In this document: positions 5,844-50,238 of the stretch, piece after piece
How the letters are laid out: every line of letters begins with the position of its first letter
Position numbering within the stretch: position 1 is the stretch's first letter
NCBI GenBank assembly: GCA_028286835.1
Contig: JAQBQT010000027.1
Location: forward strand, 14,442 to 78,441
Direction of reading: 5' to 3'
Source of the DNA: Candidatus Parcubacteria bacterium
GTDB taxonomy: Bacteria > Patescibacteriota > Minisyncoccia > Phycocordibacterales > PALSA-1337
Length of the DNA: 64,000 nt
The notes under the pieces: generated by a model
The model's database searches: none
What the model was told of the DNA's origin: nothing
The model's input: only the letters and a program-made list of their open reading frames with translations
Program-made: the position numbers and the translations under genes

Positions 5844-7655
5844 CTAGTAGCGCTTCTTCGCTGAGATCTTCTTTGTCTTAGAGGTAAGCTGTTCGAGTTT
5901 TTTAATATCCTCTTCTATCTCCTTGAGGCCTTCCCTCCAGAAATCAGGCTTCGAAACATCGATACCTATGGAACTAAGGATGTTTTCAGGGGAATCTTTA
6001 CCTCCAGACGATAGGAATTGTTCGATCTTCGGCCAGAATGATGCATCGGCTCGATAGCGACGCAAGAGAGCATTGGATACAAGGAGACCGTATGCATATG
6101 AGTACACATAGAAGAAGCGCCGTATGTGGCCCCAATGTACAAAGAAGTATCCCTCATCACGCGTAAGCTTAAAGGCTGGGCCGAGATAGGCCTGCATATT
6201 CCTATTATGTGCATCAGCGATTTCATCGGAGGACATGAATCCTTTGGTCTTGATGGTCTCGTGCAGTTCTTTTTCAAAATTGAAGCACGCTATCTGACGG
6301 AATACCGTAGAAACAGAATCATTGATCTTATCATGGAGAATGACTATCTTTTCGGTATCGGAAAGAGAGTCATAGACTGCGTCCAGAGCGATCGATTCGA
6401 AAAGCGTGCTCGCAGTCTCGGCGAGTGCCATCGAATAATTAAAGTAGATCAGCTTCTGGGACTTGGAAAGCTCTGTGTGGAATGCATGACCAAGCTCATG
6501 GGCAATAGTAGTGAATGATTGCAGGTCATCAACATGATTGAGAAGCACGAATGTCGGTAGGCTGTAGGACCCAGAGCAGTATGCGCCACCGGTCTTCCCT
6601 ACGCGTGGCATAACGTCGATTTGACCGTTCTGTATGTATTCATTGATAAATGCAGGATATTTCGCGTCGAGTTTGCCGAAAGATTTCTTAACGATTTCAA
6701 TACTGTGATCAAACGAGAAGGTGGCTTTTACCAAACCAATTTTCGCTGCCCTGTCTGAGTAGGCAAGGGATTTTAACTTAAGAAGTTTTGCCTTGAGTTT
6801 GTGGAAACGGTGTGCGATCGGAAATCCAGCCGTGACCGTTCTGACAAGCGATTCAACGACGGCAGGATCATTTCTATACACACGGACGGTCGATTCGTAT
6901 GGGGTTTTGTAGCCTCGCAATTCATCGTTTATCCTCTTATTTGTGAAGATCGCGTTAATCTCGGCTTCGGAGAATGGTGCTACTGTCTTAAGAACAGCTG
7001 AAATCTCTGCATTGAGGTGGTTGCGCTCTTTTGCGCTCGGTAGGCCGGCAAGCATATTAAAGGCTTGCGCTATCGGCAGCTTCTTTCCTTTCCATTGAAC
7101 CGTGCGCATGTTCAGCAGTTTCTGATTGCCCGCTACCCACATCTCGTATGCGGGTTGCGATTTGAGACTCATTATCTTCTCCTCTTCGATAGACAAGTTG
7201 TGCTTCGCATCATCAAAGATTCTTTCCAGGAATATTTTGTATTCCAAGAGGTTGGTATCGGAAAGAAATTCCGATTGTTTCTCAACAGGAACCTTTCCAA
7301 GCCGAATAGGAAAAAAGGTTAGCTTGTTGTCTGCTTTTGTCAGTCGATTTTCCAGAAGGGCTATGTTAGAAATAGCGTCCTTATTTTCTGCTTCGATATC
7401 ACGTAAATAATAAAAATACAAAGCAGGTTTTTCGCTTGATGCCCGCATTTTTTCCATATCGCGAATTGCTGAGGCTAAGACCTTTGGATCTTTCAGAAAC
7501 TCTTTCTCGATCGTATCGTATTTCTTTGCGAATGCTTCATGTGCACGCTCTATCGCCTTCACGTCCTTTTCGATCTGTGGGTCCGTCGTAGAAGAATAGA
7601 GAAGACTGAGATTCCAAGTCGGCAATTTCTTCAAAGGTTTCTTATTGGTCTTCAT
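5844..7655 (-). CDS. pepF: oligoendopeptidase F (M3B family metallopeptidase)
   Basis: The 603-aa product contains the HEXXH zinc motif IAHELGHAFH, and its length and overall pattern fit PepF. Confidence 0.8.
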   Translation of the reverse strand: MKTNKKPLKKLPTWNLSLLYSSTTDPQIEKDVKAIERAHEAFAKKYDTIEKEFLKDPKVLASAIRDMEKMRASSEKPALYFYYLRDIEAENKDAISNIALLENRLTKADNKLTFFPIRLGKVPVEKQSEFLSDTNLLEYKIFLERIFDDAKHNLSIEEEKIMSLKSQPAYEMWVAGNQKLLNMRTVQWKGKKLPIAQAFNMLAGLPSAKERNHLNAEISAVLKTVAPFSEAEINAIFTNKRINDELRGYKTPYESTVRVYRNDPAVVESLVRTVTAGFPIAHRFHKLKAKLLKLKSLAYSDRAAKIGLVKATFSFDHSIEIVKKSFGKLDAKYPAFINEYIQNGQIDVMPRVGKTGGAYCSGSYSLPTFVLLNHVDDLQSFTTIAHELGHAFHTELSKSQKLIYFNYSMALAETASTLFESIALDAVYDSLSDTEKIVILHDKINDSVSTVFRQIACFNFEKELHETIKTKGFMSSDEIADAHNRNMQAYLGPAFKLTRDEGYFFVHWGHIRRFFYVYSYAYGLLVSNALLRRYRADASFWPKIEQFLSSGGKDSPENILSSIGIDVSKPDFWREGLKEIEEDIKKLEQLTSKTKKISAKKRY

Positions 7656-7657
7656 TT

Positions 7658-7990
7658 TTATTTTAGTATCGCAGCCAAGCCGTCGGTAAGCGCAGTCTCA
7701 AGTTTTCCCTTGAAGAGCATCGCAGCCATCGGGAGCTTGGCGGTGACCTCAACCTTATCTGCCAAAACCGAGATAGTGCCTGATATGGATTGTCCCTGGG
7801 CCGTGAACGTGAATTCACATGCATTTCCTTCCCACTTCTGCTCAAGCGTTCCGGAAACGGGAGGCACGCCTGGCGCTTGTATCGGGCCTCCAGATAGTTT
7901 CAACTGGGCCTGATCCATGAAGACCTTGATGCGGCTTTGAGCCTCTTCCTGGCCGAGCGTATGAGGAGCCGATGCGTGTAGTGTGGACAT
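7658..7990 (-). CDS. hypothetical protein
   Basis: The 110-aa ORF is tightly packed between pepF and the UDG gene. No motifs were recognised. Confidence 0.5.
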   Translation of the reverse strand: MSTLHASAPHTLGQEEAQSRIKVFMDQAQLKLSGGPIQAPGVPPVSGTLEQKWEGNACEFTFTAQGQSISGTISVLADKVEVTAKLPMAAMLFKGKLETALTDGLAAILK

Positions 7991-7998
7991 AGAGAGTA

Positions 7999-8619
7999 TT
8001 ATGCAAACTTTTTTAAAATATGGAAGTCCGTTATGAGCGTCTCGCGCATGCCGCCATTGTAGAGCGCTGCGGCGGGATGATACAAGGTGATGATGGTGAC
8101 CGGATGGGACCCATGGTCCTCATCGAAATACGCTGTCTCGAATGTCTTGCCGTGGATCTTGCTGATGGGCTCCAATTCCAGGTCCAGATCATATCGCTGC
8201 ATGACATAGTTCATGCTGTGGCGCCCCAGCGTGGCGATGACCTTGGGCTGAATGATCTGCACCTGCCGGTCAAGGAATGGCGCATATAGGGCGATCTCTT
8301 CAGGCGTCGGATCGCGATTCTCAGGCGGGCGATCCTTGACCATGTTGGTAATGTAGACATCCTCGCGCTTGAGGCCGATAGAGGCGATGAGCTCATCGAG
8401 GAATTTCCCTGCAGCACCGCAGAAAGACCTCCCTGTCTTTGCTTCAGTCTGCCCGGGCGCTTCGCCGACGAACATGATGCTCGCATCGTGGCTCCCCTCC
8501 CCGATCACAGGGAAATATTTATTCCTGGTGCGATACTCATATAAGGGCGAGGCCTTGAATTCAAGAAGCTCGTCCCGGATCTTCTTCAGCTTTTCGTATT
8601 TGTCATTCTTGGTAGCCAT
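7999..8619 (-). CDS. uracil-DNA glycosylase, family 4/5 type
   Basis: The protein contains GEAPGQTE (the family-4 UDG motif GE[AG]PG) and a C-terminal HP motif (TLYHPAAAL). It is 206 aa. Confidence 0.8.
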   Translation of the reverse strand: MATKNDKYEKLKKIRDELLEFKASPLYEYRTRNKYFPVIGEGSHDASIMFVGEAPGQTEAKTGRSFCGAAGKFLDELIASIGLKREDVYITNMVKDRPPENRDPTPEEIALYAPFLDRQVQIIQPKVIATLGRHSMNYVMQRYDLDLELEPISKIHGKTFETAYFDEDHGSHPVTIITLYHPAAALYNGGMRETLITDFHILKKFA

Positions 8620-22560: not shown

Positions 22561-22566
22561 GGTTTG

Positions 22567-22640
22567 TGCACCCTGCAGGGCTCGAACCTGCGACCTCGCC
22601 CGTGTGAAGGGCGCGCTCTAGCCAACTGAGCTAAGGGTGC
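22567..22640 (-). tRNA. tRNA-Val (anticodon CAC)
   Basis: A manual cloverleaf can be drawn: acceptor stem GCACCCT/AGGGTGC, anticodon stem CGCCC/GGGCG with loop TTCACAC, and T arm GCAGG-TTCGAGC-CCTGC. No CCA is encoded. Confidence 0.85.
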
Positions 22641-22729
22641 GGTGAAAACAGCTTACGGCATTTTTGAATATTCCTCAAATCATGCTAGATTGTAGTGCGT
22701 CCGAATAGCGAGGATCGCGATCAGCTTTC

Positions 22730-22802
22730 GGGCCATTAGCTCATCTGGTAGAGCGCACCCATGGCATGGGTGAGGTGGCCGGTTCGAGTCCGGCATGGTC
22801 CA
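22730..22802 (+). tRNA. tRNA-Ala (anticodon GGC)
   Basis: The acceptor stem GGGCCAT/ATGGTCC carries the G3:U70 alanine identity pair. The anticodon loop is ATGGCAT. The T loop is TTCGAGT. Confidence 0.85.
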
Positions 22803-22864
22803 CACATAGAATGGGAAAGTTCCTCTGGCGAATCAGGACTGGAATGTGGTATCGTAGCTCACAT

Positions 22865-22935
22865 CGGGGCGTAGTATAGTGGTAGTATACACGCTTCGGG
22901 TGCGTGAGGTCCGAGTCCGATTCTCGGCGCCCCGA
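22865..22935 (+). tRNA. tRNA-Pro (anticodon CGG)
   Basis: The acceptor stem is CGGGGCG/CGCCCCG. The anticodon stem CACGC/GCGTG closes loop TTCGGGT, which has G37. The T arm is CCGAG-TCCGATT-CTCGG. Confidence 0.75.
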
Positions 22936-22976
22936 CATGAATTTATTCCGCCGATGTGCACTCGATGGCGGAGCCA

Positions 22977-23047
22977 GGGCCTATGGTCTAGTGGCATGAC
23001 GTGGCATTCGCATTGCCAAGACCCGAGTTCGATTCTCGGTAGGTCCA
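22977..23047 (+). tRNA. tRNA-Ala (anticodon CGC)
   Basis: The acceptor stem GGGCCTA/TAGGTCC has G3:U70. The anticodon stem TGGCA/TGCCA closes loop TTCGCAT. The T arm is CCGAG-TTCGATT-CTCGG. Confidence 0.8.
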
Positions 23048-23087
23048 CAAAAATAACGACCAAGGGTCGTATATTTTTGTAGGATGT

Positions 23088-23125
23088 CTGGATCGTTTAC
23101 GATCCAGACGCCACAAAGATAGATC
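23088..23125 (+). repeat. tRNA-Ala-linked conserved hairpin element, copy A
   Basis: The sequence is TGTAGGATGTCTGGATCGTTTACGATCCAGACGCCACA, with a perfect 10-bp stem GTCTGGATCG/CGATCCAGAC and loop TTTA. It lies 41 nt downstream of tRNA-Ala(CGC). A near-identical copy lies at 24339-24376. Confidence 0.5.
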
Positions 23126-23136
23126 GTATAAATAAA

Positions 23137-23162
23137 AAGCCGCCCATTTGCATGAGCGGCTT
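23137..23162 (-). terminator. rho-independent terminator for the PEP-CTERM protein gene
   Basis: A 7-bp stem AAGCCGC/GCGGCTT with a 12-nt loop is followed on the minus strand by TTTTTATTTAT. Confidence 0.5.
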
Positions 23163-23183
23163 GAGGTTGAAGCTGTACTGAAA

Positions 23184-24047
23184 CTAACAACTGACTGCGA
23201 CCAACGCTGGCTGCCGGTTGGAACGGATCCTTCTGATAACTACGAAGCCCATAAGGCTGATCGCAGCTAAAAGACCGTACGTCGCCGGCTCGGGAACTGC
23301 GGAGAAACCTCGTGCCTCTCCTGCCCCAGTGACATTCCTAACGTACACTGTATTTTCAAAGCCTTGGTTTTTGATTTCAAGGCTGATCGAAGTGACGTCT
23401 GGAACTTGGGCATCGCTGATGGTATCGATAGTGACTCCGTCTTTTACGAAGGAAACGCCGACACCTTGCTTGTACTTGATCTGCCAATCCGACCAGATGC
23501 TTTGCGGTTCGACATCTTCGGGCCGCGGATTCATGTACGATAGCGAGCCGTGCTCTACTCCGTTTACTTCCATTGTCCATAGCATCTTCTGTGGATCAAT
23601 AGAGGTTCCATTGTGAAGGATGAGCTTCACGCTGTTGCCATCGGCAGTTTGCACCCACATTTCTGCGTCATACGCAATTGGAACAAGATTATTCCCGAAA
23701 GAGACCTTGTCCACGAACATGTTGGTTGGAACGCCGATGCCTGCACCGACGATCCAATCCCCTTTCAGATCCACCAGCTTTGTCCCGCCTTGAAAGTTGG
23801 ACAATTGATTCTGCGGCTGATCCGGGGGAAAGTAATCCCGAGGAAGAGCCTGAAGCTTGAGCATGTTGGTGAGGCCGCCGGTGCTTGGGTCGGGTACTGC
23901 AGCGAACGTAGCAGCAGGACTCACATTCGGAGTCCAGCCGTCGGTATTATCGAATTTGTCCAGGAAGTACCCGTTTGAGGGACCCTGAGCAAACGTTGAA
24001 CTGACAAAGCTGATCGCAAGGATCAGCGAGACTAGTAGTTTATTCAT
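23184..24047 (-). CDS. secreted protein with a C-terminal PEP-CTERM sorting signal
   Basis: The product has an N-terminal signal peptide (MNKLLVSLILAISFVSSTFAQG). The C-terminus is VPEPATYGLLAAISLMGFVVIRRIRSNRQ, which is a PEP motif, then a transmembrane helix, then an Arg-rich tail. The product is 287 aa. Confidence 0.7.
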   Translation of the reverse strand: MNKLLVSLILAISFVSSTFAQGPSNGYFLDKFDNTDGWTPNVSPAATFAAVPDPSTGGLTNMLKLQALPRDYFPPDQPQNQLSNFQGGTKLVDLKGDWIVGAGIGVPTNMFVDKVSFGNNLVPIAYDAEMWVQTADGNSVKLILHNGTSIDPQKMLWTMEVNGVEHGSLSYMNPRPEDVEPQSIWSDWQIKYKQGVGVSFVKDGVTIDTISDAQVPDVTSISLEIKNQGFENTVYVRNVTGAGEARGFSAVPEPATYGLLAAISLMGFVVIRRIRSNRQPALVAVSC

Positions 24048-24225
24048 ATGTTAACGAGCTAAGTGTGAAAGGCTGAGTAGTTTGGAAAGCCAAATTCTTC
24101 TGCCTTGAGTGAGTTATCTGCCATTGAGCATCATATCACAACAAACCATAAAAAGCAAGATACATTGAAAAAACGGCTATAATCATGTATTCTCTCTCAG
24201 TAGCATGTTTTTTCGTCCCTCGTTT

Positions 24226-24298
24226 GGGCCTGTAGCTCATCTGGTAGAGCGCCGCTTTTGCAAAGCGGAGGCACGCGGTTCGAGTCCGCGCAGGTCCA
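24226..24298 (+). tRNA. tRNA-Ala (anticodon UGC)
   Basis: The acceptor stem GGGCCTG/CAGGTCC has G3:U70. The anticodon stem CCGCT/AGCGG closes loop TTTGCAA. The T loop is TTCGAGT. Confidence 0.85.
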
Positions 24299-24338
24299 CA
24301 AAATCAAGGAGCGTAACGACTATAATCTTGTAGGATGT

Positions 24339-25826: not shown

Positions 25827-25909
25827 GTAGATATTATAACAAGAAAGTACGGATTGATGGTATCTCCTTGTTGCATTGTATTTTAGCCTGGAGTAGTCTT
25901 TTGCCAGAC

Positions 25910-26665
25910 ATGAAAACTACATATAAAGGACTCAGGGCCCTTACTCCAGCTGAGCGACTCATAGTTTCGGCTGATTTCTCACCACATACAACAACTCAGG
26001 AAATTAGAGGCGAGGTTCTTAAACTGGCCGATCTTCTTTCTAACACCGGAGTGTGTATTAAAATAAATTCCGCGCTGAGATCCTGCGGCTATAGTCTTAT
26101 TAGTGAAATCAAAGCTCGGAACCTTAGGGTCTTTGCGGATTTGAAGCTTTATGACATTGGAACTACGCTAATCGCAGACGCAAACTTCCTTCAAGACATG
26201 GAACCAGACATGCTTACGATTTCCGCTCACGTAAATATGACGTGGCTCGTGCCAATGTTAAAGATAGAACTGCCTCGTACTGAAATACTTGGAGTGACAG
26301 TTTTGACAGAAACAACCCACCGGGAATGCTTCAGTATTTACAATCGGTCTGTTGATATGGCCGTTGCGGCTCTGGCCCGGCGAGCTTCAGAGGGAGGCCT
26401 ACATGGAATCGTCTGTTCCCCCATGGAGGCTTCCAGGGCGAGGAGTTATATTAAAAAATCAATGAGCATTAATACTCCTGCAGTGCGTCCGCTCTGGTCC
26501 ACATTGAAGGATGACAATCAGAATTCTCGACGTATTGATACTCCTCAGGGAGCTATTCAAAAAGGAGCAAACAGGATTATTGTAGGTCGCCCTATCATTG
26601 AGTCCGTCGATCGTTATGGCGCCGTAATGCGCACTATCGACGAAATAGCTTCAGCCCTGTCTTAG
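25910..26665 (+). CDS. pyrF: orotidine 5'-phosphate decarboxylase
   Basis: LIVSADF (the LIVALD-type motif) and DLKLYDIGTT (the D-x-K-x-x-D catalytic motif) are present. The start was chosen at the internal Met MKTTYKGL; the ORF track opens at 25868. Confidence 0.8.
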   Translation: MKTTYKGLRALTPAERLIVSADFSPHTTTQEIRGEVLKLADLLSNTGVCIKINSALRSCGYSLISEIKARNLRVFADLKLYDIGTTLIADANFLQDMEPDMLTISAHVNMTWLVPMLKIELPRTEILGVTVLTETTHRECFSIYNRSVDMAVAALARRASEGGLHGIVCSPMEASRARSYIKKSMSINTPAVRPLWSTLKDDNQNSRRIDTPQGAIQKGANRIIVGRPIIESVDRYGAVMRTIDEIASALS

Positions 26666-26727: not shown

Positions 26728-27966
26728 TCAAGAGAGAAGTCGCTTATTCCTTCTTTGTCTATGATACGCAATTGCAAACCTGTGCGCCTCCGCATTGAGC
26801 GCGATGATCTCAGCTTTGTATGGTTCGGTCAGATCTGGATTGCCGACGAGCCTGTCTGCAACGTGCCGCTCATTCTTGGTCACGCCGACGACGGGGATCG
26901 CGATGCGCCGCGCCTTGAGCACATTCTCGGCATGCTTTGCCTGGGTCTCGTTACCGTCGACTATGATGAGGTCTGGGTAGGGCCACTCAGGATGGTTGAG
27001 CCGGCGGAACAGTGTCTCGGTCAGGCCAGCGATGTCGTTGTTGGCATTGCGGGAGATCTTGAACTTGCGGTATTCCGCCGGTGCGAGCTGGCCATTCGTG
27101 GAGACGACCATGGCTCCCACGGTCTCCATGCCGCTCAGATGCGCAATGTCATATGCCTCCATTCGGAATGCGCGGCTGGCTCCGAACTTTCCGCTTTGGG
27201 AGATGTCCCGCTTGATGAGGGCCATGTCATTGATATGGTCGAGCGCGTGCAGGAGGTAGCGGATCTGCCCCGCTTCCTCGAACTGGAGCTCTTTTGCTGC
27301 TGCGTTCATCTGCTTCTCGAGTCTGCGGCGCAGGATCTTCTTCTTGCCCTCGAAGAACAGGATCAGATAGTTGATCGTGCGAAGGTACCGCTTTCGTGCA
27401 TCCTCGTCCGTGTCATGCGGCGAGTGGCCTATGGCGCGATAGAAAGCATCGTGGCGTTCGTCGAGGGATTTCTTGTCCCTGAATGGAAAGAGGCGGCGCA
27501 GGATCTTGAGGGCGACTTTGATGAGCCCTGATTCATGGTATGGGCCGAAGCGGCGCTTGATCTTGTATGGAGCTGTGCCCTCCTTCAGGGCCTGATCGAG
27601 ATCGCGGGCGCGGGCGAGGAATACGCGCGGCCACGGCTCGGCGGTGATGACGACGTACTGCGCGCTCTTGTCGTCCCGCTCGTCGACGTTATAGAAAGGC
27701 TGGTATCGCTTGATGAGCTCGGTCTCGAGGAGGATGGCTTCGAGGACGGAACCGGTGGGCTCCCAGGTGACCGTGTGCGCCTTCGTGACCATGTCCACGA
27801 TGCGCGGCCCGCGGGTCGCGATGAGGTCTGCGGCAAAATAGCTCCGGACGCGGTCCTTGAGCGATGTAGCCCGACCAATATACATGGGGCGCTTCTTGGC
27901 GTCCCTGAATGTGTACACGCCCGGCTCGTCAGGCATATTGAGTTTTGGGAGCTTTGTGGAGAGCAT
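26728..27966 (-). CDS. uvrC: excinuclease ABC subunit C, short form
   Basis: The N-terminal GIY-YIG domain is present (GVYTFRDAKKRPMYIGRATSLKDRVRSY). The UvrB-interaction region and the RNase H-like endonuclease domain are present. At 412 aa it lacks the C-terminal helix-hairpin-helix pair. Confidence 0.8.
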   Translation of the reverse strand: MLSTKLPKLNMPDEPGVYTFRDAKKRPMYIGRATSLKDRVRSYFAADLIATRGPRIVDMVTKAHTVTWEPTGSVLEAILLETELIKRYQPFYNVDERDDKSAQYVVITAEPWPRVFLARARDLDQALKEGTAPYKIKRRFGPYHESGLIKVALKILRRLFPFRDKKSLDERHDAFYRAIGHSPHDTDEDARKRYLRTINYLILFFEGKKKILRRRLEKQMNAAAKELQFEEAGQIRYLLHALDHINDMALIKRDISQSGKFGASRAFRMEAYDIAHLSGMETVGAMVVSTNGQLAPAEYRKFKISRNANNDIAGLTETLFRRLNHPEWPYPDLIIVDGNETQAKHAENVLKARRIAIPVVGVTKNERHVADRLVGNPDLTEPYKAEIIALNAEAHRFAIAYHRQRRNKRLLS

Positions 27967-28044
27967 AATATATTGACTTATAGCTAATAATAATACATAG
28001 TTCTTGTCAGAAATACAATTTAAATTGATTTTTTAAAATTTAAT

Positions 28045-28533
28045 ATGAAACATATATGCAAATCTCTAGCGGAAATTAGGTCAATTCTACCTTCAGGTAA
28101 AAGCTTCACCCTTGTAAGTGGATGCTTCGACCTCCTCCATGTTGGTCACCTTCACCTACTTGAGTACGCTTCTCGCCTCGAAAGCATGTTAGTTGTTGCT
28201 ATTCTCTCGGATAGATATATACAAGGTTACAAAAATAGTAGTAGACCTATCATACCCGAGAAGCAGCGTGCCATGTTGGTGACGAGCCTGCGTTGCGTGG
28301 ATGTTGTCTATATCTCTGATGTCAGCCCAAATGACGAAAGTACTTTGACTGCATTACGACCCACTAGCATTGTATTTGATGACAGCATTCGAAATTCAGA
28401 GAAAATGAAATTGCGACTGTCTCAAATTCAAAAATGGTTGCCGTGCACAAAAGTACACTTTCTTCCCCGGTATATGGACGAGTCCGTCTCGACAACTCAG
28501 ATAATCGATAGAATCCGAGGAATAGCCAAGTGA
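28045..28533 (+). CDS. cytidylyltransferase-fold nucleotidyltransferase, RfaE domain II / HldE adenylyltransferase-like
   Basis: The HxGH motif is present in GCFDLLHVGH, and the C-terminal STTQIIDRIR region is typical of RfaE-II/TagD-type enzymes. The gene lies in an AT-rich segment. Confidence 0.7.
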   Translation: MKHICKSLAEIRSILPSGKSFTLVSGCFDLLHVGHLHLLEYASRLESMLVVAILSDRYIQGYKNSSRPIIPEKQRAMLVTSLRCVDVVYISDVSPNDESTLTALRPTSIVFDDSIRNSEKMKLRLSQIQKWLPCTKVHFLPRYMDESVSTTQIIDRIRGIAK

Positions 28534-29172
28534 TTATTTTCCCAACAAAGCATCTGTTCTTTGTAGAAAAAAGTAGTCACGGATCGCATTGAAACATGAA
28601 TTATAAAACTTAGGATTAGATTCCTGTTTTATTTTATCCTGTTGTAGCTTTAGTCGCTTGAGTGCTTCACTAAATGACACCCAAGCCACATATGTTCCAA
28701 CACTCTTCTCATTGTCTGTGAGATCTGATTGCGCCTGAGATTCTGTACGAGCTACGTATCCATAGCTGATGGTATGCCTTCCGTCTCTGGAGCGGAAATC
28801 TTCTGTTTTCCCGAGAAACTGATCTATGCTGACGTGATAACCAATCTCCTCGAGGCATTCTCTTCGAAGTCCATTGATCACTGACTCTTCGGCGTCGATC
28901 CCCCCTCCAGGTAAAAGTAAAAGATCGTGCACGGCATTGCCAATGAGAGCTATTTCATTACGCTCATTAAATACGACCGCCTTTGCAGTTATGCGGTCTT
29001 GCCATTCTGTACGAGGCATAAGTGACAAATTTGCAAATACGTCATTGTCTCTAAGGAGAAATAATGTTTCGCTTTTTTCGTCATCAAAGCTTTCCATGGA
29101 ATGCAGTCTACCACAAAAATCCAAAGATATTAGAAAGGAAATATGAAGCCGAGAATAATAATCTGCAGGCAC
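28534..29172 (-). CDS. NUDIX hydrolase
   Basis: The NUDIX box is LPGGGIDAEESVINGLRRECLEEIGY. The likely start is the internal Met at about 29097 (MESFDD), which removes the overlap with the divergent gene. Confidence 0.75.
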   Translation of the reverse strand: MPADYYSRLHISFLISLDFCGRLHSMESFDDEKSETLFLLRDNDVFANLSLMPRTEWQDRITAKAVVFNERNEIALIGNAVHDLLLLPGGGIDAEESVINGLRRECLEEIGYHVSIDQFLGKTEDFRSRDGRHTISYGYVARTESQAQSDLTDNEKSVGTYVAWVSFSEALKRLKLQQDKIKQESNPKFYNSCFNAIRDYFFLQRTDALLGK

Positions 29173-29796
29173 GCAGAATCAATTGAGGACGTAGATAATA
29201 CTATTTACAGTATTCTGGATGACCTAGAAATACCTTTGACTGAGAACGGGCGCTCACAGGCGGCAAATCTCGGTAATATTCTAGCTCAGGTATTGAAGAA
29301 TTCGACCCGTGTGCAATTCTATACCTCTCCAGGCGTACGAAACGTGCAGACGCTTAAAGAAGTGATACCCAGATTACCAGATTCAATTGCAGTAAATGTT
29401 GAAGTAGAACCCCTTATTGTTAAACAATGTTGGGGTAAAATTGATCTCACTACTCGATCCTCCATAGAAGCTGAAAGATATCGGGTAGGTGTTCTTCGTT
29501 ATACTTTCCCACAAGGCGAAAGCGCATTAAGTTTGATATCTCGGCTCGAAATGTTCAAGAATAAGATACTTAGTCTTCACGAAGAAAAAAGATGTGACGT
29601 TGTAGTGTTGTCACACGGATTTGAATTTCGAGTATTGCTCAAACTTATTTTAGGATGGAGCGAAGAGCTGTTTGAATCCTACGGCAATCTGAACAACTGT
29701 GAATATAGAATTCTAACTCAAGTTGAGACCGGTAAATACGCACTTGATAGAGATCTTCGAATGCATGGTAATCCTATTACCCGACTCAAAAATTGA
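29143..29796 (+). CDS. histidine phosphatase superfamily protein (phosphoglycerate mutase-like)
   Basis: The RHG-type catalytic motif IICRHAES is at the N-terminus, and a later SHG motif (VVLSHGFEF) is present. The product is 217 aa. Confidence 0.7.
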   Translation: MKPRIIICRHAESIEDVDNTIYSILDDLEIPLTENGRSQAANLGNILAQVLKNSTRVQFYTSPGVRNVQTLKEVIPRLPDSIAVNVEVEPLIVKQCWGKIDLTTRSSIEAERYRVGVLRYTFPQGESALSLISRLEMFKNKILSLHEEKRCDVVVLSHGFEFRVLLKLILGWSEELFESYGNLNNCEYRILTQVETGKYALDRDLRMHGNPITRLKN

Positions 29797-29840
29797 AGCC
29801 AGTCGTAAGCCTGACACATTTAGTTGTCAGGCTTTTTTTA

Positions 29841-32501
29841 TTACCCCTTCTTCAGCACTTTTTTCAAATACTGTCCCGTATACGATTTCGGATTATTTGC
29901 AACGTCCTCTGGTGTTCCCTTCGCGACGAGCTTGCCGCCGCGCTCGCCGCCTTCAGGACCGATGTCGATGACATAGTCCGCGCTCTTGATGAGATCTAGG
30001 TTGTGCTCGATGACGACGACTGTATTGCCCTTGTCGACGAGCCTCTGGAGGATCTCGATGAGCTTGCTCACGTCTTCATAGTGGAGGCCGACAGTCGGTT
30101 CATCCAAGAGATAGATGGTCTTCTGGGTGTGCGAGCGATAGAGCTCTGACGATATCTTCACGCGCTGGGCCTCGCCGCCGGAAAGGGTCGTGGCTGACTG
30201 GCCGACCTTCACGTAGCTCAATCCCACTTCCTGCAGTGTTGACAGGCGGTCATGAATGGCCGGAATGTCCTCAAAGAATTTCAGGGCCTCTTCGATGGTC
30301 ATCTCCAGGATGTCATAGATGCTCTTCTTCTTGAACTTGATGTCGAGGGTCTCCTTGGTGAAGCGCTTGCCGTTGCAGACGTCGCAGGTCACATAGACGG
30401 TCGGAAGGAAATGCATCTCCACTGCGATCTCGCCGTTGCCTTCGCAGTTCTCGCAGCGTCCGCCCGGTCTATTGAACGAGAAGCGTCCTGGGCCCCAGCC
30501 TCGTGCGCGGGATTCAGGCTCGCTCGCGAACATGTCGCGGATGTGCGTCCATGCGCCGGTATATGTCGCTGGGTTCGAGCGTGGCGTGCGGCCGATCGGA
30601 GACTGATCGATGAGGATGGTGCGGCCCACATATTCAGTGCCCTTGAATTCCTTGGCATTGATGACCTCGTTGGAGCGGTTGCGGCTCTCGAACCTCGCCT
30701 GCAGGTTGCGATGGAGGATCTCGTACATGAATGAGGATTTGCCGGAGCCCGAAACGCCGGTGATGACGTTGAATACGCCGAGCGGTACGTCGGCATCCAT
30801 ATTCTTGATATTAAAAGCGTTGCCGCCGCGGATCAGGATCTTGCCCTTCGGCTCACGGCGCTTGGCCGGAGTCGGTATGACCTTCTCGCCGCGCAGGTAT
30901 GCCAGAGTGAGGGAGTCGGACGTATTCTTCTTGGCCGTGAGAAGCTCGTCGAGCCAGCCGGAGACGACCACGTTGCCGCCGTGGATGCCGGCACCTGGGC
31001 CGATATCGACGATATAGTCGGAAGCGTACATGGTGTCTTCGTCGTGCTCGACCACGAGAATGGTGTTGCCGAGGTCGCGCAGATGCAAGAGGGTCTTGAT
31101 GAGGCGGTCATTGTCGCGCTGATGGAGGCCGATGGTCGGTTCATCCAGAACATATAGAGCGCCCACAAGACCTGAACCGAGCTGTGATGCCAAGCGGATG
31201 CGCTGGGCTTCCCCGCCGGAGAGAGTGGATGCACGACGGTCTAGGGTCAGGTATTCGATACCAACGTTGACCATGAATGAGATGCGTGCGCCGATCTCTC
31301 TCAGGACGACCTTGGCGATCTCGCGTTCGGCTTCGGTGAGCTTGATGTCCTCGAAATACTTCACAGCCTTCTCGATGGATAACCCTACGACGTCCACGAT
31401 ATTCTTGTCGCCGATGCGCACGAAGAGGGCTTCGGGGCGTAAACGGGCACCTTTGCATTCCGGGCATGGCTTGTCGCTGAAGATGCTCTCTGTGCCGAGG
31501 CCGTTGCAGGTCGGACATGCTCCGTATGGCGAGTTGAAGGAGAACAGGCGCGGCTCGATCTCGGGATATGAGAAGCCATCATACGGACACATGAATTTGA
31601 CGGACATGAGCTTCTCGTCGCCTTCGCTTTCCTTGGCGCCCGGATATTCTATCTTGATAAGGCCGTCTGATTCCTGAATGGCGCGCTCCAACGCTTCGGA
31701 CAGGCGCTCGCGGGCGTCTTCCGCCTGCTTCTTGTCGCTGAATTCGCTGACGAAGAGCTCGTCCACCATGACGTCTATGTCATGCTTCTTGTTCTTCTCG
31801 AGGATGATCTGTTCGCGCAATCGGTGCGGGGTGCCGTCGACGCGGACGCGGTCATATCCCTTGCCGAGGAGGTCATAGAGGAGCTGGTAGTATTCGCCCT
31901 TGCGGCCGACGACGACCGGGGCCCAGACACGGACTTTGGCATCGGTTATATTCACGCCGAATACATTCTTAGCGCGGGTCGAGCGCTCGGTCACGGTCTT
32001 CAGAATGGTCTCAAGGATCTCTTCCTTGGAGATGCGGTTGATCTCGCGGCCGCAGATGAGGCAGTGCGGCTTGCCGACGCGCGCAAACAAGATACGCATA
32101 TAGTCGTATATCTCTGTGATCGTGGCCACCGTCGAACGTGGGTTGTTGGAGCGGGATTTCTGGTCGATGGCGATGGCCGGAGAGAGGCCGAGGATCTCAT
32201 CGACATCGGGTTTCTGCATCTTGTGCAGGAATTGGCGGGCATATGCGGACAATGACTCGACGTAGCGGCGCTGGCCTTCTGCGAAGATGGTATCGAATGC
32301 AAGCGATGATTTGCCGGAACCTGAAAGACCAGTGACCGCGATCATAGTATTTCGCGGCATTTCTACGCTGATGTTCTTGAGATTGTGCGTGCGTGCGCCT
32401 TTTACAATGATCTTATCGTCGCCATGAGCACCTGTGCGGGCGGAGTGGGTGGACTTTTTTGGAGTAGCTGACATGATTTCGGGAATATAGCACGATTTCA
32501 A
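29841..32501 (-). CDS. uvrA: excinuclease ABC subunit A
   Basis: Two ABC ATPase modules are present ([12 protein letters not shown] and [12 protein letters not shown]), along with zinc-finger CxxC pairs. The likely start is at about 32474 (MSATPKK). Confidence 0.9.
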
Positions 32502-49554: not shown

Positions 49555-50238
49555 TTACCTTCGGTGCGTGTATTCCAGAGAGCTCTTGAATGTGCCGATT
49601 TCCGGACATTCTTCAAGGATCTTTTGCCTGAGACAGCTCCTGGCTCGGCTAACACGGCTTTTGACAGTTCCGCTATTTGTCGCAAGCTGTGAGGCGATGG
49701 CATCGTAAGGGACATTATCAAGCGTAAGGACCAGAAGCATATGCTGATGATCAGGCAATTTTGACATAAATCTGCCAGCCATATTTTCTGTTTCAAACCG
49801 GACCGCCGCCTGATAGGGATCGGCATTCTCATCTGGAAGCAGATCGGCTAGCGTTCGTGCAGTATCAGCTCCAAGAGGCGTGTCGAGCGAATGATGATCG
49901 CGCTTGCGACGCCTGCGGTTGTAGTAGTACCTGTGGGTGCATTTATTGCGCGCTATTTTAAAAAGCCATGTTTTGAGGCATGATTCGCTTCGGAAATCTG
50001 TAAGGCTCCTATGAGCCCGGATAAATGTATCCTGTACGATCTCGTCAGCATCCTCCTTGCTATAAAGATAGTTGAATGCGAGTTTCCAGATATACTTATT
50101 ATACCGTTCCCAAATCTCGATGAATGCTGACTCGTCTTGATCGACGACAAACCGTTTAATAAGTTTGCTATCGATCTCACATTCTATTTCGGCGCTTGGT
50201 CGAGACGTTTCTGCCTTTTCTGTGTGCGTGGTGCTCAT
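49555..50238 (-). CDS. ECF-type RNA polymerase sigma factor
   Basis: Sigma-70 region 2 (IVQDTFIRAHRSLTDF...KTWLFKIARNKC) and region 4 (VPYDAIASQLATNSGTVKSRVSRAR) are present. The product is 227 aa. Confidence 0.75.
   Translation of the reverse strand: MSTTHTEKAETSRPSAEIECEIDSKLIKRFVVDQDESAFIEIWERYNKYIWKLAFNYLYSKEDADEIVQDTFIRAHRSLTDFRSESCLKTWLFKIARNKCTHRYYYNRRRRKRDHHSLDTPLGADTARTLADLLPDENADPYQAAVRFETENMAGRFMSKLPDHQHMLLVLTLDNVPYDAIASQLATNSGTVKSRVSRARSCLRQKILEECPEIGTFKSSLEYTHRR

Follow-up and report, generated by a model that had tools for sequence, protein, structure and literature searches.

HldE domain II and HldC are small HxGH nucleotidyltransferases, whose partners are GmhA, HldA and GmhB. 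In NadM-Nudix and NatV, which are bifunctional nicotinamide mononucleotide (NMN) adenylyltransferase-ADP-ribose pyrophosphatases, a NUDIX domain is functionally coupled to a nucleotidyltransferase that belongs to the same superfamily. MutT1 of Mycobacterium smegmatis and Mycobacterium tuberculosis (Rv2985) is a natural fusion of a Nudix and a histidine-phosphatase domain, and the function of the phosphatase domain was long unknown (PMC11784022). Here we describe a 1.9 kb islet from the metagenome-assembled genome of a Candidatus Parcubacteria bacterium that carries separate genes for a nucleotidyltransferase, a NUDIX hydrolase and a histidine phosphatase between uvrC and uvrA. The islet lies in a stretch of 64,000 nucleotides (contig JAQBQT010000027.1, positions 14,442 to 78,441 of the forward strand), which is called the window below and to which all unprefixed coordinates refer.

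Like HldE domain II and HldC, the first islet gene encodes a small HxGH nucleotidyltransferase, for which TIGR02199 is the best curated model; unlike them, it is accompanied by a NUDIX hydrolase and a histidine phosphatase. Compared with NadM-Nudix and NatV, the transferase is not of the NMN-adenylyltransferase type, the transferase and NUDIX genes are convergent and unfused, a phosphatase is added, and the NUDIX protein does not have the ADP-ribose pyrophosphatase hallmark. MutT1, in which the same two folds are physically coupled, is the closest known physical precedent; however, the identity is 18-20%, the cassette genes are separate and divergent, and MutT1 has no transferase partner. The islet is very probably a conserved functional cassette that was inserted at this site. 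Our best reading, to which we give an even chance, is that of a self-contained three-gene cassette of Parcubacteria/Patescibacteria that would make and break a nucleotide-activated phospho-compound and that is inserted at the conserved uvrA-uvrC junction.

The cassette and its orthologues

The islet contains three intact open reading frames (ORFs) in plus, minus, plus order (ORF list and Pfam), as a preliminary description of this DNA had reported. The first (28045-28533, +) encodes a 162-aa HxGH nucleotidyltransferase from the RfaE-domain-II-like clade of the cytidylyl/adenylyltransferase superfamily (PF01467). The second (28534-29097, -) encodes a 187-aa NUDIX hydrolase (PF00293, with a Nudix box and an AlphaFold2 (AF2) model), and the third (29143-29796, +) a 217-aa histidine phosphatase of branch 1, which is phosphoglycerate-mutase-like (PF00300, AF2 model). 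The transferase and NUDIX genes are tail to tail, with 0 nt separating their stop codons in the window; the NUDIX and phosphatase genes are divergent, with start codons 45 bp apart. The NUDIX start is the ATG at 29097, as in the public gene call and in the protein on record. A longer NUDIX ORF that begins with GTG, reaches 29172 and overlaps the phosphatase gene was rejected as a real gene. In the ORF list, uvrC (26728-27966, -; 412 aa) and uvrA (29841-32501, -) flank the islet. They had been described as convergent; both are in fact on the minus strand and co-directional, with uvrA upstream of uvrC, and the convergent pairs at the locus are phosphatase/uvrA and transferase/NUDIX.

The trio was found with the same order and orientation in nine distinct neighbourhoods, including the window (source-contig look-up of orthologues, confirmed by tblastn). 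It lies between uvrC and uvrA in the window, between DUF6176 and UCP032817 genes in L002, between greA and PBP2 in L004 (an Adlerbacteria genome), between LAGLIDADG and methyltransferase genes on an ENA contig, between trigger factor (tig) and clpP in L167-L170, between histidine kinase and tRNA synthetase genes in L171, between two hypothetical genes in L172, between an isochorismatase fragment and the contig end in L174 (a Taylorbacteria genome), and between FtsK-ResIII-DUF3800-methylase genes and the contig end in L176. Across loci the stop codons of the transferase and NUDIX genes abut (0-4 nt apart or overlapping by at most 14 nt), and no terminator lies between them. The pairwise identities of transferase and NUDIX co-vary over the loci (r = 0.88), which fits inheritance as a unit. 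The earlier proposal of a turnover module thus stands with regard to one functional unit, given the nine neighbourhoods; its ADP-ribose/NAD version does not, given the missing NMN adenylyltransferase match and the missing NUDIX hallmark. An Exo_endo_phos gene lies upstream of the trio in L172.

Among the copies compared, that of the window is the most divergent. The phosphatase family has >100 clusters at 55-72% identity, some of them with sources named Yonath-, Taylor- or Woesebacteria. The transferase family has ~30 orthologous clusters at 42-57% identity, and the NUDIX family profile retrieved 48 representatives at E <= 1e-30; one NUDIX orthologue carries the source name Roizmanbacteria. 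A scan of metagenome contigs with the transferase alignment gained one orthologous locus (L087), the pattern FDL[LI]HVGH being swamped by generic RfaE-II homologues. A full-text literature search for the gene combination, or for a link between ADP-heptose and Nudix enzymes, returned nothing relevant, and yielded no description of a conserved trio with an exchangeable third partner that is repeatedly relocated in Parcubacteria.

The exchangeable partner is seen in a phosphatase clade sister to that of the cassette (38-46% identity; loci L177 and L178), which keeps the divergent NUDIX/phosphatase pair and has no transferase. The NUDIX protein of this clade is orthologous over its full length (39% identity; hhalign probability 100%). 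It is followed on the same strand by a gene for a ~340-aa protein (L177:4316-5335, -; L178:3849-4892, -; the pair is 50% identical) that has no Pfam or PHROG match. The sole similarities of this protein are weak, collinear matches to two ATP-grasp ligases, LysX at E = 0.0055 and BacD at E = 0.017 and 0.8, and hhalign against the ATP-grasp enzyme Ddl of the window, as a single sequence or as an 18-sequence profile, returned nothing. An ATP-grasp identity was not adopted on these grounds and is kept as a lead. From these comparisons, the NUDIX/phosphatase pair is the invariant core and the third partner is exchangeable.

Further genes of these types stand on the sister-clade contigs. In L177 a CYTH (triphosphate tunnel) gene, another NUDIX gene and an Exo_endo_phos gene come after the phosphatase gene (L177:6677-7694, -, and 7720-8514, +). 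L178 encodes a 1177-aa class-I aminoacyl-tRNA synthetase (L178:7664-11197, +), which is IleRS-like with a DUF5915 C-terminus and carries an inserted histidine-phosphatase domain (residues 519-674, 114 bits). The start of a 144-aa NUDIX gene (L178:11197-11631, +) overlaps the end of the synthetase gene. This arrangement is a second, independent linkage of phosphatase and NUDIX on a Patescibacteria contig.

The divergent 45-bp spacer between the NUDIX and phosphatase genes (29098-29142) contains AGT(C/G/A/T)TAC at 29105-29111 and GAAAGG at 29133-29138. AGT.TAC is invariant in alignment A4 (8 loci), often as TTGAGTGTAC, and the element occurs in the spacers of L002, L004, L006, L087, L167, L171, L172, L174, the sister-clade locus L177 and the window. 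It precedes the phosphatase start codon by ~35-50 nt and may serve as an operator or as a -35-like element of a promoter. A GAAAGG ribosome-binding site was read by eye in each spacer, and the spacer is ~40-60 bp long across loci, as measured from tblastn-supported NUDIX starts. The preliminary description had the last two genes share a divergent promoter region; the divergent starts are measured, and the spacer suggests a shared control region. No regulator gene lies within the cassette.

The AT-rich tract reported earlier upstream of the transferase gene is a spacer of 78 nt with 15% GC (27967-28044), which extends from the uvrC start to the transferase start and is likely a divergent promoter region. 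It contains a promoter-like TTGACT-17-CATAGT at 27973-28001 (+), a match to the consensus alone. In contrast to the orthologous cassettes, the window transferase ATG has no Shine-Dalgarno sequence. At the other end, a terminator scan found an intrinsic terminator (29807-29841, +; 10-bp stem, T7 tail), which is assigned to the cassette and falls inside the segment that is not homologous to the closest relative. A stem with a T-run behind it was seen by eye 3' of the phosphatase gene in 5 of the 6 other loci examined; L172 has none within 90 nt. No riboswitch or small RNA was found in the spacers, and the Rfam matches in the window are tRNAs only.

Insertion at the uvrA-uvrC junction

A UvrC scan over 185,579 species genomes returned 80 loci, at which the neighbours of the window were compared by tblastn. 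The co-directional order uvrB-(response regulator)-uvrA-uvrC-ddl is kept in ~20 Parcubacteria relatives, including Taylorbacteria, at UvrC identities of 36-77%. The trio was found within 8 kb of uvrC at none of the 80 loci (tblastn). The uvrA-uvrC gap in relatives measures 7 bp (L020), 21 bp (L018), 1.35 kb (L009) or ~5 kb (L019), and the contents are unrelated: small membrane-like ORFs, as judged by eye, in L009 and a 1453-aa ORF resembling a secreted repeat protein in L019. The closest relative, L007, has a UvrA 93% and a UvrC 77% identical to those of the window. DNA homology to L007 (75% in uvrC, 84% in uvrA) ends at window position 27935 and restarts at 29835, and the segment between (27936-29834; GC 0.40, tetranucleotide z = 7) is inserted, compositionally foreign DNA. 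At the same junction, L007 carries an unrelated 852-bp insert (L007:745-1596; GC 0.41 versus 0.55 for the locus) that encodes a ~255-aa hypothetical protein on the opposite strand. In view of this different low-GC insert and the varied gap contents, the junction is a recurrent landing site, with the trio as its lineage-specific cargo here. The insertion is established by synteny with the relatives, not by composition; the trio is conserved in relatives at other sites and not at this position.

The islet had also been described as more AT-rich than its flanks, and calculation confirms this. The GC content of 27967-29830 is 0.403, compared with 0.529 for the whole window (-4.4 standard deviations), and is the lowest among all 1864-bp segments of the 64 kb (mean 0.530, standard deviation 0.029). 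The GC content at third codon positions is 0.34-0.42 in the trio genes versus a mean of 0.65 over 52 ORFs, and in tetranucleotide composition no other segment is farther from the window (z = 7.05), so that the composition is not uniform by either measure. Across loci, cassettes span a GC content of 0.34-0.51 and their hosts 0.36-0.58. In the GC-rich hosts (n = 4), the cassette lies 12 (window), 8 (L004), 10 (L167) and 7 (L172) percentage points below the host, whereas the differences in low-GC hosts are +4.5 (L002), -4 (L171), -2 (L174) and 0 (L176) points. The AT shift in GC-rich hosts is a property of the cassette family and is consistent with gene flow out of low-GC donors or with selection. 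Since the shift is family-wide, composition alone gives no date for the arrival in this genome. Horizontal acquisition had been proposed from composition; the foreign composition and the insertion relative to ~20 relatives agree with it, and the argument from composition to a recent arrival falls with the family-wide shift.

The same shift, seen in all 4 GC-rich hosts and replaced by host-matching composition in low-GC hosts, would also be expected if the trio were ordinary adjacent core genes, vertically inherited and AT-rich for expression reasons, with neither an insertion nor a functional unit. The strong conservation of the phosphatase (55-72% identity) points the same way. We consider this explanation very unlikely, because the position differs in every genome examined, the trio is not at this junction in ~20 relatives, of which L007 has a different low-GC gene there, and the fixed order, orientation, spacer motif and co-varying divergence favour a functional unit.

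Like a classical genomic island, the islet has an atypical composition, is missing at the site in relatives and occupies a junction whose cargo varies by lineage. Unlike such islands, it is just 1.9 kb long and has no integrase or transposase, tRNA target or flanking repeats. No recombinase ORF was found in or beside the islet (ORF list, Pfam), no tRNA lies at the junction (the nearest is 3.6 kb off), and a search for flanking direct or inverted repeats or target-site duplications found only chance-level repeats. No cassette orthologues were found on 2.9 million viral contigs (IMG/VR) or among the phages and plasmids of INPHARED and PLSDB. A phage or plasmid origin of the cassette was rejected on these zero counts.

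The preliminary description had hinted at a part in phage defence or counter-defence, in which the module would deplete a nucleotide or degrade a nucleotide signal. The islet is compositionally foreign, the L176 cassette adjoins FtsK-like, ResIII, DUF3800 and DNA-methylase genes, and NUDIX and phosphatase enzymes are found in some defence and anti-defence systems. However, PADLOC-DB 2.0 gave no match for the transferase or the phosphatase and a single 22-bit match for the NUDIX protein, restricted to the Nudix-box stretch; orthologues are missing from the viral contigs, plasmids and phages searched; the contexts are mostly housekeeping genes; and the cassette has no sensor or effector component. 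The hint is not upheld, and we regard a defence role as the least probable of the functions considered.

Other genes of the locus and the window also show irregularities. The pyrF gene (25868-26665, +; GC 0.459, third-position GC 0.42) separates uvrC from ddl. In most relatives ddl comes straight after uvrC, and pyrF is otherwise found there only in L007, where it is 38% identical and host-like (GC 0.58). This suggests that the window pyrF is a foreign allele that replaced a resident copy. The window UvrC has 412 aa versus 574 positions in the TIGR00194 model and scores 243 bits, below the cut-off of 285; the UvrC proteins of relatives whose ORFs were read have 413-453 aa, and the shortening appears to be lineage-wide. 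Judging from domain hits, the part absent from the short UvrC is probably the C-terminal helix-hairpin-helix region. Two more genes are compositionally atypical, those for an M3 oligopeptidase (5844-7655, -; GC 0.447, second-highest tetranucleotide distance) and an extracytoplasmic-function (ECF)-type sigma factor (49555-50238, -; GC 0.475). A 287-aa secreted-looking protein with a terminal PEP-CTERM sorting motif (26 bits) is encoded at 23184-24047 (-), and its gene adjoins a five-tRNA cluster (22566-24299).

The three enzymes

The transferase scores 49 bits with PF01467 (cut-off 21) and 48.1 bits with TIGR00125 (cut-off 27.7), and profile scores and motifs together place it in the cytidylyl/adenylyltransferase superfamily. 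H32-x-G-H35, S149-T150 and K63 are invariant in the 29 transferase sequences of alignment A1, and the C-terminal STS motif is invariant in the family. The best curated model, by ~30 bits, is TIGR02199 (rfaE_dom_II), which is matched over its full length at 77.1 bits and has an equivalog cut-off of 181.5 bits; a score of 79 bits was obtained with phrog_7878, a heptose adenylyltransferase family. The earlier assignment to an HldE-domain-II-like enzyme therefore holds for the superfamily and the best model and not at the level of the equivalog. The TagD model TIGR01518 (38.7 bits, cut-off 165.4) and the archaeal-type pantetheine-phosphate adenylyltransferase (PPAT) model NF001985 (35.1 bits, cut-off 104) are not reached, and no NMN adenylyltransferase model (NadM, NadD or NadR) is among the 11 NCBIfam matches at E <= 0.01. 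In the PDB, the transferase family profile matches human ethanolamine-phosphate cytidylyltransferase (3elb), archaeal 3glv, HldC of Burkholderia (5x9q) and TagD. The alignment to 3glv, which we take to be of the RibL FAD-synthetase type, is full length at 59.5 bits. The N-terminal ~100 residues are 45-50% identical to proteins source-named stand-alone HldC-type; the C-terminal third diverges, and coverage against generic homologues is only 55-65%. GmhA, the HldA kinase and GmhB were not found in or next to the cassette in any of the 9 contexts.

The second protein is a NUDIX hydrolase, as described earlier (PF00293, 55.7 bits, cut-off 21.1). The Nudix box G-x5-E-x7-REC-x-EE-x-G is intact in the window and its residues are invariant in alignment A3, which also displays two family-specific motifs, FRSRDxRH and a C-terminal FYNxxFNxxRD. 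The AF2 model (predicted local distance difference test, pLDDT, 90.5) has a Nudix fold, and the nearest structures in a PDB fold search are at most 24% identical. These fold neighbours comprise 2azw (no function in the entry title), diphosphoinositol-polyphosphate phosphohydrolases (DIPP), mycobacterial MutT1, DR1025 and Ap4A/Ap6A hydrolases. The hallmark of ADP-ribose pyrophosphatases in the NUDIX superfamily is a proline ~15-16 residues past the Nudix box. In the window protein, positions +15 to +18 past the box are R, S, R and D, within the conserved FRSRD, and the proline is missing. NUDIX enzymes acting on CoA have an upstream NuCoA motif and those acting on NADH a downstream SQPWPFPxS; by eye, neither is present in alignment A3. 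The best NCBIfam match is MutT1 (NF052459) at 22 bits with a cut-off of 475; MutT (TIGR00586) is matched at 20.9 bits with a cut-off of 97.9, and, as a feature shared with NadM-Nudix and NatV, a weak match to NF003791 spans the Nudix-box region. Two distant NUDIX members are fusion proteins: P0378 (337 aa) carries an inosine/xanthosine triphosphatase (NTPase_I-T) domain and P0305 (344 aa) a DUF7689 domain.

The histidine phosphatase predicted for the third gene likewise stands (PF00300, 73.8 bits, cut-off 21.7). R66 and H158-G159 are invariant in alignment A2, and R9-H10 is present in at least 90% of sequences. The RH(G/A)xS nucleophile motif, the second Arg, the distal HG and the score assign the protein to the branch-1 superfamily. 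The AF2 model (pLDDT 94.7) confirms the fold, with a template modelling (TM) score of ~0.7 to TIGAR, CobC and PspA. Its fold neighbours, at 17-25% identity, are TIGAR, Rv3214, Rv2419c, CobC, PspA, the riboflavin-pathway enzyme 9mmh and Ykr043c. None of the subfamily cut-offs is reached: scores and cut-offs are 44.3 and 350 bits for PspA, 33.3 and 163 for CobC, 34.6 and 225 for dPGM, 18.3 and 74.5 for SixA, and 18.2 and 170 for PmrG, and the MutT1 model is not matched. For the NUDIX and phosphatase models alike, PDB fold searches gave superfamily-level neighbours only (at most 25% identity), and no substrate is assignable from them. By their sequences, the trio proteins are predicted to be catalytically competent members of their superfamilies that stand outside any characterised subfamily.

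The matches of the transferase and the phosphatase bear on a role in cofactor salvage or homeostasis. The NUDIX enzyme would split imported FAD, CoA or NAD(P), the phosphatase would trim the mononucleotide or a 2'/3'-phosphate, and the transferase would re-adenylylate FMN, 4'-phosphopantetheine or NMN, so that three reactions would close a cycle around one cofactor. The full-length alignment of the transferase profile to 3glv, its weaker match to NF001985 and the presence of 9mmh among the phosphatase fold neighbours point in this direction, and Parcubacteria depend on external cofactors, which fits host-dependent salvage. Such a role is unlikely in our estimate. The PPAT model scores ~40 bits below the heptose-type models, NMN adenylyltransferase models are unmatched, the NUDIX family does not have the CoA, NADH or ADP-ribose subfamily motifs (by eye on alignment A3), and the cassette has no riboflavin kinase or dephospho-CoA kinase.

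The NUDIX matches lead to a further alternative, in which the pair would sanitize nucleotide pools or clear (di)nucleoside polyphosphates, acting like MutT1 on 8-oxo-(d)GTP, Ap4A or phosphohistidine proteins, with the transferase as an accessory. In structure comparisons, MutT1 Nudix/histidine-phosphatase fusions rank near the top for the NUDIX model (TMq ~0.55), MutT1 is also the best NCBIfam match of the NUDIX protein, though at 22 bits, and a distant family member is fused to the inosine/xanthosine triphosphatase domain. In L178, the second phosphatase-NUDIX linkage lies beside an aminoacyl-tRNA synthetase, a potential source of Ap4A, and in the sister clade the pair stands without a transferase. 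However, none of these similarities goes beyond the superfamily level (18-24% identity), a MutT1 match is missing for the phosphatase, and the strict linkage to the transferase (9 of 9 cassette loci) is left unexplained. Sanitation is thus improbable, somewhat more so than cofactor salvage.

Proposed function and significance

For the preferred reading, that of a cassette which makes and breaks a nucleotide-activated phospho-compound, we infer the substrate, the order of reactions and their regulation as follows. The cassette would have arrived at uvrA-uvrC via horizontal transfer or illegitimate recombination. The transferase would convert ATP or CTP and a phosphorylated sugar or polyol (X-phosphate) into a nucleoside diphosphate-X (NDP-X), the nearest model being ADP-heptose-type chemistry. 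The NUDIX enzyme would hydrolyse the pyrophosphate bond of NDP-X and release a nucleoside monophosphate and X-phosphate. The phosphatase would remove a phosphomonoester, either to turn a bisphosphate into X-1-phosphate or to dispose of X-phosphate. The third gene would in general supply an ATP- or NTP-using partner of the NUDIX/phosphatase core. Because the 3' ends of the transferase and NUDIX genes abut without a terminator and a 45-bp control region is shared, the opposing synthesis and degradation activities may be expressed alternately. This reading accords with the best transferase models, which are heptose-1-phosphate adenylyltransferases, with the sugar-phosphate and small-molecule phosphatases among the phosphatase fold neighbours, and with the intact catalytic motifs throughout the trio. 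The assignment to NDP-sugar or NDP-polyol chemistry is a tentative one.

Several observations weigh against this reading. No trio gene reaches any curated equivalog cut-off, so that no substrate can be assigned to any of the enzymes, and neither a heptose kinase nor an isomerase is part of the cassette. Most fold neighbours of the NUDIX protein act on polyphosphates, Ap4A or 8-oxo-GTP, not on NDP-sugars, and the many Arg, Lys and His positions that are invariant across its family suggest that its ligand carries more phosphate groups. The sister clade does without the transferase. The transfer is not explained by any mobility gene, tRNA or flanking repeat at the islet, and the family-wide AT shift in GC-rich hosts could reflect selection instead of recent arrival.

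Eukaryotic inositol-pyrophosphate turnover (PPIP5K/Vip1 with the DIPP Nudix enzymes) offers an analogy. The NUDIX protein matches DIPP proteins at a second tier, in sequence and in structure, and the cassette may follow a comparable logic of a writer, a NUDIX eraser and a histidine-phosphatase eraser, for which the sister-clade partner is tentatively ATP-grasp-like. The likeness is one of analogy only, and the cassette phosphatase belongs to branch 1, not branch 2. To our knowledge, inositol pyrophosphates are not known in bacteria. A bolder proposal is that the NUDIX/phosphatase pair and its exchangeable ATP-using partner form an undescribed write/erase system confined to the candidate phyla radiation (CPR), acting on a phosphoanhydride small molecule, which might be a signal or an activated precursor in an episymbiotic lifestyle, and spreading horizontally without recognisable mobility machinery; we think this improbable.

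Each trio protein comes from a known superfamily, and a coupled nucleotidyltransferase/NUDIX/phosphatase module is not surprising in principle. Parcubacteria are ultra-small bacteria whose tiny genomes encode very few accessory pathways, and the group is almost entirely uncultured. A cassette that stays intact in >100 sequence clusters of such reduced genomes, with one member 55-72% identical between lineages, and that has repeatedly changed its site, likely does something that Parcubacteria need. The identity of its substrate would add a defined metabolism, or the handling of host-derived nucleotides or cofactors, to this uncultured group. The locus also indicates that conserved junctions, uvrA-uvrC and tig-clpP among them, can take up gene cargo without integrases or repeats, which bears on how reduced genomes acquire genes.

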